This document shows, in pieces, positions 19,924 to 46,934 of a DNA stretch of 64,000 nucleotides. The notes under the pieces were generated by a model, which was not told the origin of the DNA, did not search any database, and worked only from the letters and a program-made list of their open reading frames with translations. The translations under genes were made by a program, and so were the position numbers. The stretch lies in the NCBI GenBank assembly GCA_001244265.2, contig CDLV01000004.1, positions 1,922,001-1,986,000 on the forward strand. Direction: 5' to 3'. The stretch is from Microbotryum violaceum (Eukaryota). Each line of letters starts with the position of its first letter. Position 1 is the stretch's first letter.

Positions 19924-24786
<4,863 letters not shown>

Positions 24787-38740: not shown

Positions 38741-39363
38741 AAGCAGCTCTCGGTCCAGCGTCCCAGCTGGCTAGCGCTGTTTCAGACCGTTTCGCCTACG
38801 TTCGCCGAGGTTCCATTGAATAGCACGTGACTCTCTGTGTCCCGAAGCAGACTGTTTTGCGTGTCTACCACGTCGACGTCTCAGAGAACGGGAGACAAAC
38901 CACGTGTATTTGCGTACGAGGAGCCGGGCTTGCCTGACGCTTTGAAAGCCGCCTCGACGTCTGTCGTCCCTCTCGTCCGTCTGAGGGGTGTGATATATAG
39001 AGCAGAAGGTTTGGAGCGGCGGGACGAAGTGGAATCGAGCCACCCTAGGCATGCCTTTCTATCGTACCGACGCCATAGGGTGGCTGTGCATCTCAACTCG
39101 AAGGAGGGAGGCCATGTCCCCTGTAATCTAGCGCAGGCTCGAGGGAGCTCGAGGGTCACGCCTTGGCTTCTTTCTTATAAAGGGGGGCGGCCAAGCGGCG
39201 AGTACGCGTGCCCAGGAAACCGAGGTGTTGAGTGACGATGATCGTTTTCGGAGTGCGCGAAGCGCGCCCGCCCAGCACCTCCTTGCCCTCAACGCACTCC
39301 GCCACAACCACAGATCAAGTGGCTTCGCGTGTATCACCACAGAAACAACATACTGTGGCTCCC

Positions 39364-42158
39364 ATGACATCGCCATCGTGTCGGCGCCGTCGAGGCCATC
39401 GCTTGTTGGCGCTCACGTTGATCGCGGCCACGGCCTCCGTCTCGACTAATGCCGCGATCATCTCGCCGTTGAAAGCACTTCGCGGCTCGCTCCTTCGGCG
39501 TGGGCCTCAGCCGTTCGACGTCGCCCCTCAACCGTTGTTGGTGGCACGAGCAGGGAATCGTGCCATTCGGTCGTCGCCGCACCCGAAAGCACCTGCCATA
39601 CCGACAGGCGGGGTGCACAACAGCAGCTCGAATGCGACTGTTGTGGAACATTTGCCCAATCCGACAGCCGTCGAAGGTCGATACGGTCATTCGGCCGTCT
39701 ACGTCCAAGAGACGAACTTGCTCTACTTTGTGGGAGGACAGTTGGGCGAGAATGGGACAACTGTGACGAACGAGGTGCTTGTTTTCAACCTTGCCAACTC
39801 GATTGTCTGGAACAGTCGCCCCTCGACCAGAATCCTTGACAACCCGCTCGCCGTTTCGAGCGTTTCGGAAGACCTTGATCCGCTTGCGTGGGCCGCGTCT
39901 GCAGTCGATGATTGCGGCAGAGCTTGGATCATTGGTGGGGTCACAGAGGACTGCGAGCACGATCATACCGTCCATCGGCTGGACATGAGCAATCTCACTC
40001 TCTCTGACGCCATCGAGGTCGGCGCCGAGTGGATCGTACCGCAGATAGTTTCTCATACGCCGCCTCGTCGTCGTCAAGCGCAAGCAGTGGCGATCTACAA
40101 CGCCACGGCACGATCAGATGATATCTACGTCTTTGGCGGCATCGCGGAACAATATACTTGCTCCGACGAGACGATCGGCTACCTCGGTATCGATCGATAC
40201 TCGACGACAGAGAATCACCATGGCCAGAACGAGGTCGAGTCATTTGCGTGGACAGCGCCGAGTGGCACAAGTGCCAAAACGTTTGAACCACCCGTCAGCG
40301 ATTACACGGCGACTGTGCTTGAGGGTGGACGCTTTGTCGCCATTCTGGGCGGCCAGACTGCTCACGGAGGTCTTGCTCCGTTTTCGGAAATTCTTGTCTT
40401 TGATTCGAGACTGAAAACATGGAATAAAAGGGTCAGTTCGAGGCCGCATGCTCCTGGTTCACGACTCATGACACCTGCTGATACAACGCAAGCTCACTGC
40501 AGATCGCAAGAGGCACCCCTCCGTCGCCCCGAATGGGCCATGTCGCGATCGCTCTCCCTTCCGGAGCCGTGCTGGTGCATGGTGGAATCCGCGAAGACCA
40601 CGCCGTCCTGAACGATATTCATCTGCTTACGCCTCCCAGCGACCTCAACTCGGATACCGCTCGATGGACCTGGTCCACTCTAATCCGCAATCGCCACTCG
40701 TCTCTCGCCTCCCCTAGCCGGGCATGGCACACAGCAACCCGACTCGTTTCAGGGACGGTCGTGTTCGCATTCGGAATCGACACGTCGACTGGATCGCCCT
40801 CCGATTCTATCTCGTTCTTTACTATCGACGAAAGCAAGGGCGAGTACTCATTTACACCCCAATTCCATGGGGAGTCCGCAGTCGCGCCTAGGCCCGGAAC
40901 GACGACTTCGTCTGTCCGATCTTCCACATCCTTCTCGAAGCAGAATACGACGAGCCATAAAGCCACGACCAAGTCCAAGAAGAAGAAGAAGAAGAAGCAC
41001 CACCCAACGTCACAGGCCGCAGCCGACACGACCTCGACGATCCCCTGGGCTACAGCAACGTATTTTGCGCAGCCGACTCAAGCCCCTGCGACGACACCCG
41101 CCGAGGACACACTCACGACGTCATCGAGCGCCAGTAGTGTCGCAGCAGTTCCCCCCGTATCTGCTTCTACGCAGCATGACGAAGCGTCGAGTAAGGCCGC
41201 GCAGCAGACGAAAACGATTGCCGCCTCGGTGGGCACACTGGTCGGTCTCGTTGCTCTCGTTGGTGTCGCCGCGATCTTCATCCGGCGCCGCAATTCTCAA
41301 AAGACGCGACACGAAGTACCAGATACACAGCTGGACATGACCCGTGGTGGAGGTAGTCAATTTGCGCCTATAGTTTCGAGCCTGATGTACACCCGACCTG
41401 TGCAAGCTCGCCAGCTCTCGTTAGGTAGCGCGATGTCGGCCAACAATGGTCACGTCGACGATTACTACCGCGGTAAACACGAGCAGGATGGCGATGCGGC
41501 TTCGTCGACGGGTGCGGTTTTTGATGCCGCATCACCAGACCCCTTCTCGGACCACCAGCGCGTAAGCGAGTTGGGTCAGTCCCACGTGGTTGGTCGGGTC
41601 GGTCCAGGAGGTTTCGTCGAGGCCGCTTCAGCAAGCTCGATCGAAACGCAACGCAAGAAGACCTCGATACTAGATGCCATCTCCCCGTCTCTCAGCGCAT
41701 CAGTCAAATCGATTCCTTTCCTCGCTGGCTTGTATCGAGCCGATTCCAATTCCTCCTACGCCGACACCTACACCGTTCGTACACCTTCGCAGCGGTCGCG
41801 CCGCCCGAGCCTCCAGGCTTCCTCTGTAGGCCCTTCGCTCCCACCTGGCGCTGCGGCTCCTGAAGGCCTGCCCTCGGGCACCGAACGCCCCTTACCTTCA
41901 CTTCAAGAATACGGCGTCGCGATGTCAGGCGATTCCGACCTCCCCGAAGCGGCCTTCATGAAGTTCTACTCCCGCTCCGCTTCAGGAAGCCGGAGTTCAT
42001 CCTTCGATTCCCGTATCGGTTGCGCCGGGATCGGAGCCAACGGTGGTGGTGGAGGCGGTTATGCGAGTCATCCTTCCGTCGACGTGGTACGATCCGATAC
42101 TTCGAGGATGAAGCCTTCGCGCGCTTCAACGGCTTTGAGAGTTACGAACGCCGATTGA
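39364..42158 (+). CDS. Kelch/galactose-oxidase-type beta-propeller type-I membrane protein
   Basis: N-terminal hydrophobic signal (LLALTLIAATASVS). Kelch repeats (GRYGHSAV..YFVGG, IYVFGG, RMGHVA..LVHGG, RAWHTAT), a Ser/Thr stalk and a TM segment IAASVGTLVGLVALVGVAAIFIRRR. One intron at 40432-40502. Confidence 0.88.
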
Positions 42159-42355
42159 GCTCGAGCATCTTACAGACATTTCTTTCTCTTGATCAGTTCC
42201 TTCGTCTTCCACCCACTTTTATGGCGGACACGGTCCACCCCTTAGTTTTATCCCCCCCCCCCCCCCCCCTTTCCTCGAATTAGCCTCTTCCCTCTTTCTT
42301 CCCATATTTTTACTATTTTGACCATTCCTGTTCCTTCATTTCATGGCATGAAATT

Positions 42356-43671
42356 TCAATACTCTGGAGCGGCACGACCGAATCGAACGCCGCGTTGATC
42401 AAAGTCCTGAGAGATGAGCACCTCTTCCGCCCAGCCGCTCTTGTTCGATCCGGCGTCGGGGATAGCGCAATTATCGACGCAGGTGAAGACGAGGAGCGAG
42501 TCGAAGGAGAAGTGGTCGTCCTTGAGGAAGGAAAGTAGCGTCGAGAGGATCTGGGATTATAAGTTCAGACCCCAAGCTCTCGTCAGCACGACATTTCCTG
42601 ATAGTTGCTCACGTCCGCAACTCACCTGGAATTCGACCTGTCGTTTGGCCCCACACAACGAACAAGGCTGCACCTGATCCGACGTGACTTTCTTCTTGTT
42701 CGCCCATAAGGGTTGAGGATCCTCTACACCCGGCAATCGATAGAAGCGCAGTACTTGCTTGGGCACTCGTTCGACACGTTCTTGGAATGTGAGGAACACC
42801 TTGTCGACGCCGGATTGGGTGTCGGGCAAGTCGGCGTCTTCGGCGGCGCCTTCGGTGGGTTGTCGATCCGACTCTGTTCCATCTCAAAGATCGATGGTGA
42901 GCAAGCACAAACATTTGCAACGTAAGGACGTCTCCTCAACTCACCTAGGTAGGAATCCTCATAAGGTTCGGACTCGCATATGACATCCCACTCTGGCCAC
43001 ATGGAAGGCGCAGCATGTACCGATCCCGCCAAAGCCGTAGTAGGGTCCAATGCAGCTTCTGCAGGAACCGTCGCATAATTCCCACAAGTCAGCCATATCA
43101 CACATATCTCAGGTCTTTCCCCAATTCGAATCTTACTCACCCAATTCCCTCCTCCTCTTCTGCGTCTCCTCAGTATGCGGATAAAACTCATTCGGACTAG
43201 GCATCTGCACCCTCCACACCTTCATCGCCTTGCCCGCATCCTTACTCGAGCATTCCTTCCTTGGACACGTGAAGACAAAGAGTGATCGGGCTGCGGCATG
43301 CGGTCGGGTGGCGTCGGGGGAATTGACCTTTATCACCAAGGAGGGAGAGATCAGTCACACGTCCAAGGCTGACGATCAGTTACACGTCTGAGGCTGACCA
43401 ACAGCGAAGTGGTACTGACCTGCAACAACATCGCCATCGTCTTCCCACACTTGGGGCATGCGACCTGACTCGTTTCGAGTGGGGACCGAGGATCCAACCA
43501 CACCGGTTTCCCACTGACCTTCCCAATCGCGAAATCAATGTTCCATTCCTTATCTCGCGCCGACATGGGTTGCAGTAGACCCAATTCGACTTCCTCGTCG
43601 TCGTCGTCAAAGTCTTCATCATCGGAATATTCCTGCTCTTCTCCACTCTCCATCTCGACATCATCCGCAGC
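42356..43671 (-). CDS. TSR4: Tsr4/PDCD2-like moiety (uS5/Rps2 chaperone family) of the fusion gene
   Basis: VELG..GKVSGKPVWL..CPKCGKTMAMLLQ ^ VNSP..RSLFVFTC...FQERVERVPKQVLRFYR..PLW..CSLCGAKRQVEFQ ^ ILSTLL..FDSLLVFTC..C..WAEE. Stop at 42356-42358. Confidence 0.88.
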
Positions 43672-46600
43672 ACCTCCCCGTAGTCGCAGTGCATCAGCTT
43701 GCTCATCAACAGCCATGACCGATGCACCCGCAGACATCGAAGCCTCCCGTGCCACCGTAGCTTTGGGCGAATCGACAATGTTCTTAAAGTCTTCCGTCAT
43801 CGTTGAGTCCTCGTAAGGAGGTGCCTCATCATCAATGGCAAGGTCGACAACGACAGGCGAAGAAGGTGTCAAATTCGCCTCGATAGGGGGCAAGATCTCG
43901 ATCACGTCTTCGGCCGTGGTGGGAGGGCCTCTCACGCAGAGGGGCGGTGAAGGAGGCGCAAGCTCCATCTGAGGCGTCGCGGGGCCTGAGAGTCGGTCGA
44001 CCCAGGGTTCTTCTTCCGCCATGGGAGGTGTCGGTGGCAAGCGTTCGAGAGGCGGCGTCCACGTCTCGACAATTTCGGTCGGTAATTCGGAAGCGAAACT
44101 GTGGTTGTCTTGGAGTATGAGGGAACGAAGGACGGAAGGGATCGTGATGGAGGTGTCGGCTCCGGAGCCGTCGTTGCCGTGTGCAAGTTTGGGGTTATCG
44201 TAAAAAAGCAACGTCGCGCCAGCGCTCATCATCAGACCTGACGGATCAGAGACGACTTGCTCGAACGAGACCTGTGGGTGGCAACTACCGCAATCAGCCA
44301 TGATCTCACTCAAAGCAGGGACATTAGCCTTCCAGTCACCTCTTCCTTCTCCAGATCCTTGATTCTCCACCACTTGCCCTCCTCCTTGACCACAGCCCAC
44401 GAACTACCCCTCCCATTCAAACCATTCCTCATCAACACGGCCTTCAACTCATAAGGTCCCCTTCTTTTCCACTCGTCCCCATCGAACGTTGCGTCGATCG
44501 TCTCCCTCAATTCCTCAATGACCTTATCGCACCCTCGAATCTTCTTCTGTACCTCTTGCTCAATCTTCTCATAGGCGATTTTCAACCTCCTTCTCCTCTC
44601 TTTTCCTACATCGTCCACACCCTCCTCTTCCTCGTCCTTGTCCAAATACTCCCTCGTGTCCCTGATCAACCCCAACGCCTCCTTCCCCTCCAGAGTGCTA
44701 CTCAACCTGTTCCTCATCCTCTCCAAATCCTCCACCTGCCTCCTCAAATCATACACCAGAGCTCTCTTTTCCGCAATCTCAAGCCTCCTCGAAGCATCAT
44801 AACGATCCAACCAAAGCGTTTCTTCAAACTTGACGCCTCGTCGACTTCGTTTCCTCGGAGCGCCTACGCTCACGTTCGCCTCGCCGTGTTTGGAAAGTGC
44901 CTTGTGAATCGAAGACGAGCCGAAGCCATCCAAGGACATGATGCCTTCTTCATAACGATCCAATCGTACGATAAGCGATTGAGAGAAATGCGTGATCAGG
45001 CTGAACGAGGCGGGTTTCCCTGTCGAGGGTAATGGTAGTTCATTGAGGTTCGCGTCGATGAATTGGTACAACGTAGGCGCAGAGACACCGACGAAGAAGG
45101 TGGGGACTCGTAGCCGAAGGATCTGTGATTTTCAGAGATGGTCGTTGTGAGTGTAGGTTCCGTCGACGCAGGCCAATTTTCATACGCGTACGGCAATACT
45201 ATCCCCAATCGGGTACGCCATATTCTCGTCCAGCGGCTCAGCAAGCGACACCGGATTGTTATTGAACGTCTTGCCCGACAACGAGAATCTCTGCACCACC
45301 TTTTGAACAGCCAATGGTCGTTCATCCAAAGGCAATGCCTTGGCGTCGAGGGTCGAATACAATCGGAAGGTGTCGATCAACCCTTTGATCATGGTCGATA
45401 CGTCTTCAACTGCACCGATGCGGGTGGGTAGACGGAGGAGGCCGTTGGGGTCGAGGACTTGGGTCGCTTCGGTGATGTGGAGGAAGGAACGCTTCGTTTC
45501 TTGCATCAGGGTAAAGAGGCGTTGGATCGCGATGAGGGCTGCGGGGAGAGTAAGCCTGTGATCAGCCAGGCCAACAGTCTCACCACAAATATTGAACACC
45601 AACTGACCCCATACCGGGTCCTTCTCATCCCTTGCGGTGCCCTCCAAAGCCGGTGGTTCGGTGCCATCCCATATGCCCTGCAAGGATTTGGAGCATCCGA
45701 GGTCGAATTGGTTCGGCCTGAACTTGAGCACGGCTTTGCGCCAAGTCGGAACGGCGTAGAGGCATTGGATGAAGGACGACAAGAGGCCGAGGAGCGCCGA
45801 GGTCGATCGTACGATTACGGGTCTGTGGAGCCAACGGGCGGAGGTCAGACTGGGATCTCCGAAGCAGCGAGCTCCTTCTGAGACTCACCCTTGATCGGGT
45901 TGTCGGATCCTATCCTCTGGCTTGATGGCCGCAATGGGTGCTCCGCCCGGTCCCATTTGATCCCTCAAATCGCCCAAGCTCAACGAGATGGCCTTTTCGA
46001 TATCATCGTCGCCTGCTTCGAGCCCGCGGTTCTGCGTCGACTCCGCCCCGGATTTGCGCTGTTCGTCGGGCCCGATCATCTTGGTATCGGTGCCCATCGC
46101 AGTGGAAGTGACCATATTTGCGTTGGAACTCGCCATTTCAGCCTCCTGCATGCTCATCGCAATCGCTCTCTGATAATCAGACTCCTCATCGTTCGAAGAG
46201 GGACCGAGCGTCGCAGTAGAGGACGAAGCCGGCCCGAGGCTGAATCTCCGTCCTGCTTTGGTCGATTGTTCGAGCGCGTCGGCGAGTTGGTGCGGGTCGA
46301 AACCGCCGTAGGGTTTGATGGGGTCGGTCTCTTCGTCGAGGGTTAGATCAACGTCGGGAGACCACTTCGATCGGGCTATGCAAGGGGGGGAGGAGGGAGT
46401 CAGTGTGCGGAGGGAAGGAGGAGAGGCACGTGCCCGAATCGAATCGCTTACGAGACTTGAAGGGGACGAGTGCGGTCGAAGCAGGTCTTGCTTCATGGTA
46501 ATCTTGAGGGGGGCCAAAGGATGCCGAGCTAGGTCCATAAGGAGGAGGCAATCTGTCCCCGTCGGCATCGGCGTACGGGTGTTCATGGCTGGTCGTCTTG

Positions 46601-46934
46601 GCTGTCGTCGCAGCAGATGCGGCCGGTGCTGGTGATGGTGCTGGTGCCGGTGATGATGATGTATCAACGATGATGTCGGTATCATCTCCAAGGTTTTCGC
46701 CACACAGAAGGGCATCCAAAGCATGATCGAAATTAGTGCCCTTGCGCTGTAAAGGAAGTTCAGAGACAGGCTCGGGCAGCTGATCAGGTTCACTGCGATC
46801 TCGTAGACGGCGACTCGAGCTGGAATGACGATGATGGAACTGACCCGCACAGCTCGGACCGCATCAGCGGCGGGGAAGCCCATCTGCTTCAGTTGCTCGA
46901 CCGTCTTGTCCTCGAGCAAGGTCAGCTGCGTCAT
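42356..46934 (-). CDS. UBA + UIM + catalytically dead USP-fold protein fused in frame, through an LRLRGG linker, to Tsr4/PDCD2L
   Basis: UBA 'VEQLKQMGF'. UIMs DYQRAIAMSMQE and DIEKAISLSLGD. Degenerate Cys box PVIVRSTSALLGLLSSFIQCLYAVPTWR and His box YELKAVLMRNGLNGRGSSW..WWRIKD. Phase-0 intron 44272-44339, then one uninterrupted exon into the Tsr4 domain. Confidence 0.82.

Follow-up and report, generated by a model that had tools for sequence, protein, structure and literature searches.

A gene on the minus strand of contig CDLV01000004.1 of Microbotryum violaceum (assembly GCA_001244265.2) joins, in one predicted protein, a dead protease of the USP25/28 type and a complete protein of the Tsr4/PDCD2L type, with the ubiquitin-tail sequence LRLRGG at the border between them. 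The window, i.e. the whole stretch of DNA analyzed, is 64,000 nucleotides (nt) long and comprises positions 1,922,001–1,986,000 of the forward strand; all coordinates below are window positions. The parts of the protein are, in order, a UBA domain, UIMs, the dead USP25/28-type domain, a linker, the LxGG-A motif, an acidic tract and Tsr4/PDCD2L. One open reading frame spans the junction, RNA contigs extend across it, the catalytic residues of the USP domain are replaced, and the motif, whose distance to Tsr4 is fixed, is conserved as protein sequence. A bare tail motif is thereby kept, from Microbotryum to Puccinia, at the joint of a pseudo-deubiquitinase and a Tsr4/PDCD2 protein. The chances are about even that the motif is a processing site of the ubiquitin-tail type, where a cut by a cellular protease would release Tsr4.

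Gene structure and RNA contigs

The gene model was obtained by joining minus-strand frames at GT..AG introns, and the borders were checked on spliced RNA contigs of a related species. An original prediction, made from the sequence alone, placed two proteins in one gene, with one exon running open from the end of the USP into Tsr4, LRLRGG at the domain boundary and an ATG at position 43653. All of this stands, coordinates included. Exon 7 (852 nt, phase 0) is free of stop codons from 44271 to 43420 and leads from the last USP strand through a proline-rich and acidic linker and LRLRGG to the Tsr4 N-terminus, and a single open frame spans the junction. LRLRGG is encoded at 43689..43672, alanine is next (43671..43669) and ATG 43653 is six codons past the GG. 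The surrounding minus-strand frame, 43351..44403, has 350 codons without a stop.

The 510-nt linker has no stop codon in the coding frame, and there are four and eight in the other two frames. When the linker was shuffled by mononucleotides, 89 of 20000 shuffles stayed open. LRLRGG occurs once across the six frames of the 64-kb window. The GC content of the linker by codon position is 0.64/0.50/0.61, closer to the other exons (third-position values of 0.63–0.68) than to the introns (0.49–0.53), a weak signal that is not relied on.

Sequencing runs X2 and X3 come from a relative that is mostly 90%–95% identical to the window, and were recognized as spliced from their intron skips. Their contigs skip positions 42551–42625, 42874–42944, 43059–43140, 43328–43419, 45823–45888 and 46376–46451, all of which are GT..AG on the gene strand. 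None of these splice joints is present in the DNA run X6. Skips or loose contig ends in X2 and X3 support nine of the ten introns. Intron 1 has no RNA cover, yet the model protein is there the same as the public model P0001 of M. lychnidis-dioicae (93% identical). Intron 4 (45607..45539) was set by RNA joints, and the resulting protein is again that of P0001. Loose contig ends at 44270/44273 run on into exon 6, thus 44272..44339 is spliced out.

In each of X2 and X3 a contig of 984 nt has the four Tsr4 exons joined to 43416..43730, and passes through both ATG 43653 and LRLRGG. Other contigs of these runs cover the linker at 43884–44194, and all bins from 42362 to 46705 are covered. Within the motif the sister species differs from the window at two bases, both synonymous (GGA>GGG and CTA>TTA). 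The two indels found in the gene between the sister species and the window are both 3 nt long, and one is an in-frame deletion at 43859 in the linker. A further run, X1 (99% identical), gives short contigs of low depth, one of which reaches 16 nt into intron 6, and is uninformative on splicing.

Past the 3′ end of the coding sequence, a contig of X1 stops at 42255 in a run of T (plus strand), which may be the poly(A) tail at the mRNA 3′ end. The gene strand has a run of 18 G at 42252–42269, about 90 nt past the stop codon, and the X6 DNA contigs break there.

Distribution of the fusion and conservation of the junction motif

The longer proteins that match the junction exon are all fused (17 of 17), with chain lengths of 1073–1338 amino acids (aa), and PDCD2_C is present in 16 of them. 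They belong to the Microbotryomycetes genera Microbotryum, Sporobolomyces, Rhodotorula and Rhodosporidiobolus. A wider search, over 1.84 billion representatives, yielded 56 matches; the named ones add Meredithblackwellia, Pseudohyphozyma and two more Microbotryomycetes, together with the rusts Cronartium quercuum, Puccinia triticina and P. striiformis, where the proteins are also fused. With the USP domain as query, a word-limited search likewise gave only fused matches (17/17); stand-alone USP25/28-like clusters of other fungi were seen as leads only. The metagenome contig L002 contains the whole gene, and a single open reading frame of 334 codons leads from the helix that follows the USP through the motif into Tsr4. 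The contig L003, which is independent of L002, shows the same uninterrupted frame. By sequence comparison the fusion is real and old, i.e. a single gene that appears ancient in Pucciniomycotina.

In a clade known from metagenomes only (P0047, P0052, P0057, P0082 and P0084) the post-USP helix and the long linker are absent, and the motif is located 11–17 residues past the last USP strand. This leaves no room for an intergenic region.

Public annotation of the gene is inconsistent. In M. intermedium it is split at an intron into P0002 and P0076, and the R. toruloides record P0007 is misleadingly named "proteophosphoglycan ppg4". The only stand-alone public model, P0074 of R. graminis (345 aa), begins at the Met of its motif, MQLRGG. 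In L001, a contig similar to R. graminis, the frame is open upstream of the P0074 start Met and contains the conserved linker islands described below, which suggests that the P0074 model is probably truncated. The present finding corrects the annotation in these three species.

An artefact, in which two neighboring genes were merged by prediction and LRLRGG arose by chance, is close to refuted and extremely improbable. The frame is open in the raw DNA of the window, L002 and L003, the shuffle test (89/20000) speaks against it, and the motif is kept from Microbotryum to Puccinia with codon variation that is synonymous. The grounds on which an artefact might be proposed are that most fused entries are automatic gene models and that split or truncated models are found in M. 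intermedium and R. graminis.

The motif was compared in 66 sequences that have the Tsr4 core, a set that includes fragments and some near-duplicates. The fixed pattern is [L/M]-x-L-[R/K/S/M]-G-G-[A/G]. The GG is present in 66 of 66 and the residue at position -3 is Leu in 64 of 66 (63 by pattern, 64 after correcting P0002). Position -2 is R in 53, S in 6, K in 5 and M in 1; position -4 is variable (R/Q/H/E/V); and position -5 is L in 32 and M in 28, with S, I or A in the others. The P1′ residue, which follows the GG, is A in 53, G in 8, S in 2, and T and M in one each. It is never Pro. All 17 junction-exon matches keep the motif, i.e. 10 as LRLRGG, 4 as MRLRGG and 3 as M[Q/H]LRGG. The rusts display LRLSGGA or LRLMGGA, and other lineages have LRLKGG. 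The motif of P0055 is LRLSGGA, although one pairwise alignment put it in the wrong place (0/7). In 29 full-length orthologues the column conservation of L-R-G-G-A is 0.97/0.90/1.0/1.0/0.90, and that of the flanks is 0.2–0.5.

Outside Microbotryum the motif matches that of the window at 7 of 7 or 5 of 7 positions despite a diverged linker, where 18–32 of 128 residues (14%–25%) are identical to the window. A comparison of this kind had been proposed as a check in the original prediction, and in Microbotryomycetes as well as rusts the fusion and motif are indeed kept, with a linker that diverges. The linker has three weaker conserved islands (29 orthologues, window positions 43700–44100), W-x-L-P-P-L-x-x-L, E-T-V-x-D-I-x-L-x-S-P-P and T-P-M-S-[VL]-D, and the last of these is 15–40 residues ahead of the LxGG motif. 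The proposed identity with the ubiquitin tail was accurate in part: LRLRGG is exact in the window, but the likeness weakens with distance and the invariant part is L-x-G-G with a small residue (LXGG). Of the overall interpretation, the single gene, the dead USP and the conserved motif with a diverging linker hold, which supports it in part; the cut, its assignment to a host deubiquitinase and the docking or conjugation of the freed -GG tail are inferred.

The window, L001, L002 and L003 encode the motif with different codons, and the constraint thus acts on the protein and not on the DNA. Since LRLRGG is upstream of ATG 43653 and is conserved as protein with synonymous codons, the synthesis of Tsr4 only from ATG 43653, which the original prediction had named as a refuting case, does not fit.

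Separate initiation could also take place at the motif itself, from an internal Met or a CTG-encoded Leu at position -5 or by means of an internal transcript, and the motif would then be the conserved N-terminus of Tsr4. The window codon at -5 is CTG, Met is found there in 28 of 66 sequences and R. graminis P0074 begins exactly there. This origin of the motif is nevertheless very unlikely. Leu at -5 in 32 of 66, together with S, I and A in others, leaves no conserved AUG, and the short-linker forms have no room for a promoter. The frame upstream is open with conserved islands, L001 included, the RNA contigs extend upstream beyond the motif, and the conservation of LxGG would be left unexplained.

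The position of the motif is related to Tsr4. The distance from the GG to the Tsr4 core is 39–67 aa, whereas that from the USP end to the GG is 11–191 aa. The motif is found within 90 aa upstream of the Tsr4 N-terminal core in 80 of 85 proteins, and the remaining five are stand-alone forms. The tract that follows the GG (80 sequences) has a median length of 27.5 aa and consists of 62% D/E.

The USP and Tsr4 halves and the possible function of the motif

A profile of 17 orthologues searched against the PDB matches human USP25 (5o71, E-value = 1.8e-27) over the UIMs, the core and the coiled-coil insertion, and USP28 was also matched. Exon 6 of the window alone matches USP28 (8p1q, E-value = 3.4e-05); the exon with the Cys box, searched alone against the PDB, shows no USP match. 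P0001 has UBA, UIM, UCH and PDCD2_C all above the Pfam cut-offs, with UCH at 28.7 bits (cut-off 23.9), and there is a weak UCH match on window exon 6.

The original prediction described the USP as dead, and the residues agree, as the catalytic Cys is Gly and the catalytic His is Ser in the window. The Cys position, mapped by hand, is Gly in Microbotryum, Ser in Rhodotorula and Sporobolomyces and Val in the rusts. At the catalytic His the window has GSSW compared with GHYW in USP28 and USP25; rust orthologues retain the His, without the Cys. Because the catalytic Cys and His are lost, the domain is called a pseudo-USP, and judged from its sequence the N-terminal half is a catalytically dead pseudo-USP of the USP25/28 type. 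The His and Ser that are invariant in Microbotryomycetes are not kept in the rusts, for which reason an alternative catalytic triad was rejected.

A dead enzyme that adjoins its own "substrate" invites a docking model. The motif would be an uncleaved mimic of the ubiquitin tail. It would bind in the tail channel of the dead USP, either in its own chain or in the partner chain of a dimer, or else in an active deubiquitinase (DUB), and would so latch or regulate the fused Tsr4, with the protein acting as one piece. The USP25 family fills the ubiquitin site of the neighboring protomer with its own insertion peptide and dimerizes through the insertion (PMC6509359), and the USP25-type insertion is conserved in the fusion protein. 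A channel that holds the GG and a small P1′ residue would give the same conservation pattern. However, the spacing is constrained toward Tsr4 (39–67 aa) and not toward the USP (11–191 aa), and the short-linker forms leave just 11–17 residues between the last USP strand and the GG. In addition, a reading of the profile alignment shows that the QQD-type box by which USP25 binds the ubiquitin tail is not conserved. An uncleaved mimic of this type is rather unlikely.

The C-terminal half displays PDCD2_C (PF04194) with E-values of 1e-12 on exon 10 and 5.3e-05 on exon 11; P0001 has 86.6 bits (cut-off 30). The N-terminal core (GK.GG.P.WL ... CxxC) aligns with stand-alone relatives and is of the PDCD2L/Tsr4 type. 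The MYND finger (PF01753), which animal PDCD2 matches carry, was not found on the window exons or on P0001. Tsr4 had been taken as normally a stand-alone protein, and relatives elsewhere do have their own Met, at 13–92 residues ahead of the ELG motif, and an acidic N-terminal stretch. The five stand-alone forms without the junction motif similarly open with Met, and the short sequence from there to ELG is mostly acidic. The N-terminus of stand-alone Tsr4 is thus roughly comparable, in sequence, to the product expected from a cut at the GG.

Tsr4/PDCD2L is a dedicated chaperone of uS5 (Rps2) in yeast and human (PMC7736825, PMC6648895, PMC13627120), and PDCD2 is essential from yeast to humans (PMC13127195). 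By analogy with the yeast and human members, the Tsr4 half of the fused protein is predicted to have the same uS5 chaperone role.

It is conceivable that the motif serves Tsr4 directly. It could mimic the RG-rich N-terminal extension of uS5 and occupy the chaperone site until the client arrives, or it could be an RGG site of arginine methylation. The RG-rich N-terminal extension of Rps2 (residues 5–28) is a binding segment for Tsr4 and is also methylated (PMC13627120), and in the fusion the distance to the Tsr4 core is fixed and the acidic tract is next to the motif. The invariant residues, however, are the Leu at -3 and the GG and not the arginines, the rusts carry S or M in place of the Arg preceding the GG, and the five stand-alone forms among the 85 proteins with the Tsr4 N-terminal core are without any such motif. 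A role of this kind is distinctly improbable.

The preferred reading, processing at the motif, draws on the specificity of ubiquitin-tail proteases, which is LXGG. The invariant L-x-G-G and small residue, the location at a domain border, the fixed spacing to Tsr4 and a C-terminal product that resembles the free homologue give the junction the look of a processing site. The characters of the candidate site are a GG in 66/66, a P1′ that is never Pro and a GG-Tsr4 spacing that is narrow compared with the USP-GG spacing. The motif would be a site of endoproteolytic maturation in a single precursor polypeptide. With a cut behind the second Gly, made in trans by a DUB-type (LXGG-specific) protease, Tsr4 would be released with a small N-terminal residue and the acidic tract, like stand-alone Tsr4, and a ubiquitin-binding pseudo-USP ending in -GG would be left.

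Several points weigh against cleavage. Nothing in the data at hand shows two products, and the RNA contigs, whose 5′ ends are not readable, cannot prove a single transcript molecule. As the original prediction had stated, no ubiquitin fold is seen ahead of LRLRGG: Pfam gives no ubiquitin-family match there on the exon (E ≤ 0.1) or on P0001 (E ≤ 0.01), and a feature search of residues 800–935 of P0001 for a ubiquitin-like part gave no usable match. The USP domain in cis is without its nucleophile and hence no cognate protease is identified, and the test described for USP1 showed no cleavage of its internal GG in trans (PMC4326527). Also, position -4 (the equivalent of R72) varies and rusts are without Arg at -2, thus the mimicry of ubiquitin is incomplete. 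A hidden autoproteolytic (N-O shift) site was considered separately and rejected, because P1′ is Ala or Gly and not a nucleophile.

A more extended form of the processing model is quite unlikely. The dead USP would be a recognition module that holds its own LxGG tail, or recruits an active DUB through the dimerizing insertion, so that the bare tail is cut efficiently. The free -LRLRGG end would plug the cleft or be read by readers of the free ubiquitin C-terminus, and release of the uS5 chaperone would be coupled to the ubiquitin system. If true, a factor of ribosome assembly would be made and regulated in a new way, and a polyprotein junction of the viral LXGG type would be known from a cell for the first time. 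The various readings need not be mutually exclusive.

Processing of the ubiquitin type is thought to require a ubiquitin-like fold. Cleavage of the motif would mean that LXGG processing in cells can do without the fold, and would offer a simple natural substrate with which to search for the protease; it would also tie the chaperoning of a ribosomal protein to the ubiquitin system. An uncut motif would make the protein a clear example of a pseudoenzyme that carries its own pseudo-substrate.

Coordinates of the fusion gene and its parts in the window
Feature	Position	Strand	Details and basis
Whole gene	46934..42356	minus	11 exons, ATG 46934, stop 42358-42356, ~1270 aa
Exons 1-6	46934-46845, 46746-46452, 46375-45889, 45822-45608, 45538-45192, 45122-44340	minus	
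Exons 7-11	44271-43420, 43327-43141, 43058-42945, 42873-42626, 42550-42356	minus	
UBA domain, first half, continuing into exon 2	46845..46934	minus	Pfam UBA, E 7.2e-05, 23.0 bits, cut-off 22.4
UIM 1	46140..46190	minus	Pfam UIM, E 2.5e-08, residues 62-78 of the exon 3 translation
Second UIM-like motif (DDDIEKAISLSLGDL)	45966..46010	minus	aligns with the second UIM region of USP25; no separate Pfam match
USP25/28-type USP domain, predicted dead, with coiled-coil insertion at ~44790-44480	44200..45822	minus	profile and PDB matches
Gly codon at the catalytic Cys position	45786..45788	minus	mapped by hand from the alignment of the orthologue profile with USP25
Ser codon at the catalytic His position (GSSW, GHYW in USP28)	44403..44405	minus	residue-by-residue alignment
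Linker, 170 codons, Pro/acidic, poorly conserved, open	43690..44199	minus	frame, shuffle and pairwise comparisons
LRLRGG and P1′ Ala, conserved junction motif; candidate cleavage site after 43672	43669..43689	minus	orthologue comparison
Acidic tract from GG-A to the ELG motif, includes ATG 43653	43591..43668	minus	sequence comparison
Tsr4/PDCD2L half: N-terminal CxxC core in exon 7, PDCD2_C in exons 10-11 (42871-42359)	42359..43590	minus	Pfam

Two other elements are found in the window. A convergent neighbor at 39232–42158 (plus strand) consists of two long open reading frames (39232–40611 and 40482–42158) and displays Kelch repeats of the KLHDC2/KLHL20/DRC7 type (69.8 bits), followed by a Ser/Thr-rich stretch and a weak, below-cut-off match to a transmembrane segment. 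Human KLHDC2 reads diglycine C-ends (PMC8013793); the Pfam name of the Kelch neighbor is generic and its link to the fusion gene is adjacency only. A copia-type LTR retrotransposon is located at 20856–24316 (minus strand). Its Gag, pre-integrase and integrase are in the open reading frame 22079–24316 and its reverse transcriptase (RVT_2, 197.7 bits) is in a separate one, 20856–22220, thus the polyprotein is in two overlapping frames.

Comparison with known systems

In the open-access article texts searched, no description of a USP-LRLRGG-Tsr4 arrangement was found, and a review of uS5 partners is, in the passages available, silent on a fusion of this kind. Within the literature found, precedents exist for each element of the junction and not for the combination.

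Ubiquitin-ribosomal protein fusions are made as precursors that are cleaved. Precursors with ubiquitin-like (UBL) domains are similar to the present case in that their N-terminal part ends in ...GG and continues in frame into an unrelated protein. FAU, SDE2 and TUG are all processed by DUBs behind the UBL domain; USP5 is the SDE2 protease, Usp25m is cited as the TUG protease, and fragments ending in -GG become C-degron substrates (PMC8013793, PMC13572447, PMC9556833). Several of the fusion partners act in ribosome biogenesis, and after the cut one product has -GG at its C-terminus and the other has a new N-terminus (PMC8013793, PMC13572447, PMC9556833). The TUG case has the further likeness that the reported protease is Usp25m, and the domain fused here is also of the USP25 family. 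The junction feature of these precursors, ...L-x-G-G and a non-Pro residue, is present as well (GG 66/66). The difference is that a folded UBL directly before the GG directs the DUB in these precursors, whereas none was detected here and a putatively disordered linker and a dead USP precede the motif.

USP1 cuts itself after an internal G670/G671, for which it needs its own catalytic Cys, probably in cis (PMC4326527, PMC8013793). It is similarly a USP-family protein with an internal diglycine outside of a ubiquitin fold, and its N-terminal fragment ends in -GG. Unlike the fusion protein, USP1 is an active enzyme and has its site in an insert; here the site is past a dead domain, and cleavage would set free on its C-terminal side a whole protein that is unrelated to the USP. 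The AIM of USP25 is found in the same subfamily and architecture (UBA, UIMs, and a USP with a dimerizing insertion), and there the protein's own peptide fills the ubiquitin-binding site (PMC6509359). It differs in that it is within the insertion, is not similar to the ubiquitin tail and regulates an active enzyme.

Stand-alone Tsr4/PDCD2L/PDCD2 proteins share PDCD2_C, the N-terminal CxxC core and the acidic stretch before ELG with the C-terminal half. In the fusion this sequence is the C-terminal third of a protein of 1270 aa.

For the coronavirus papain-like proteases the consensus is LXGG. The marafivirus polyprotein has bare LRGG or LXG[G/A] junctions, and its own DUB-type protease hydrolyzes an LRGG peptide and very likely cuts the junction; the peptide is a poor substrate beside ubiquitin for the viral protease (PMC8348309). 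As in the fusion protein, a bare LXGG and a small residue, without a ubiquitin fold, are located between functional units (PMC8348309). The virus, however, encodes an active protease, whereas the sole protease-like domain here is without the Cys and, outside of the rusts, without the His too. With the protease-like domain of the polypeptide dead, a cellular enzyme would have to act on the junction in trans.

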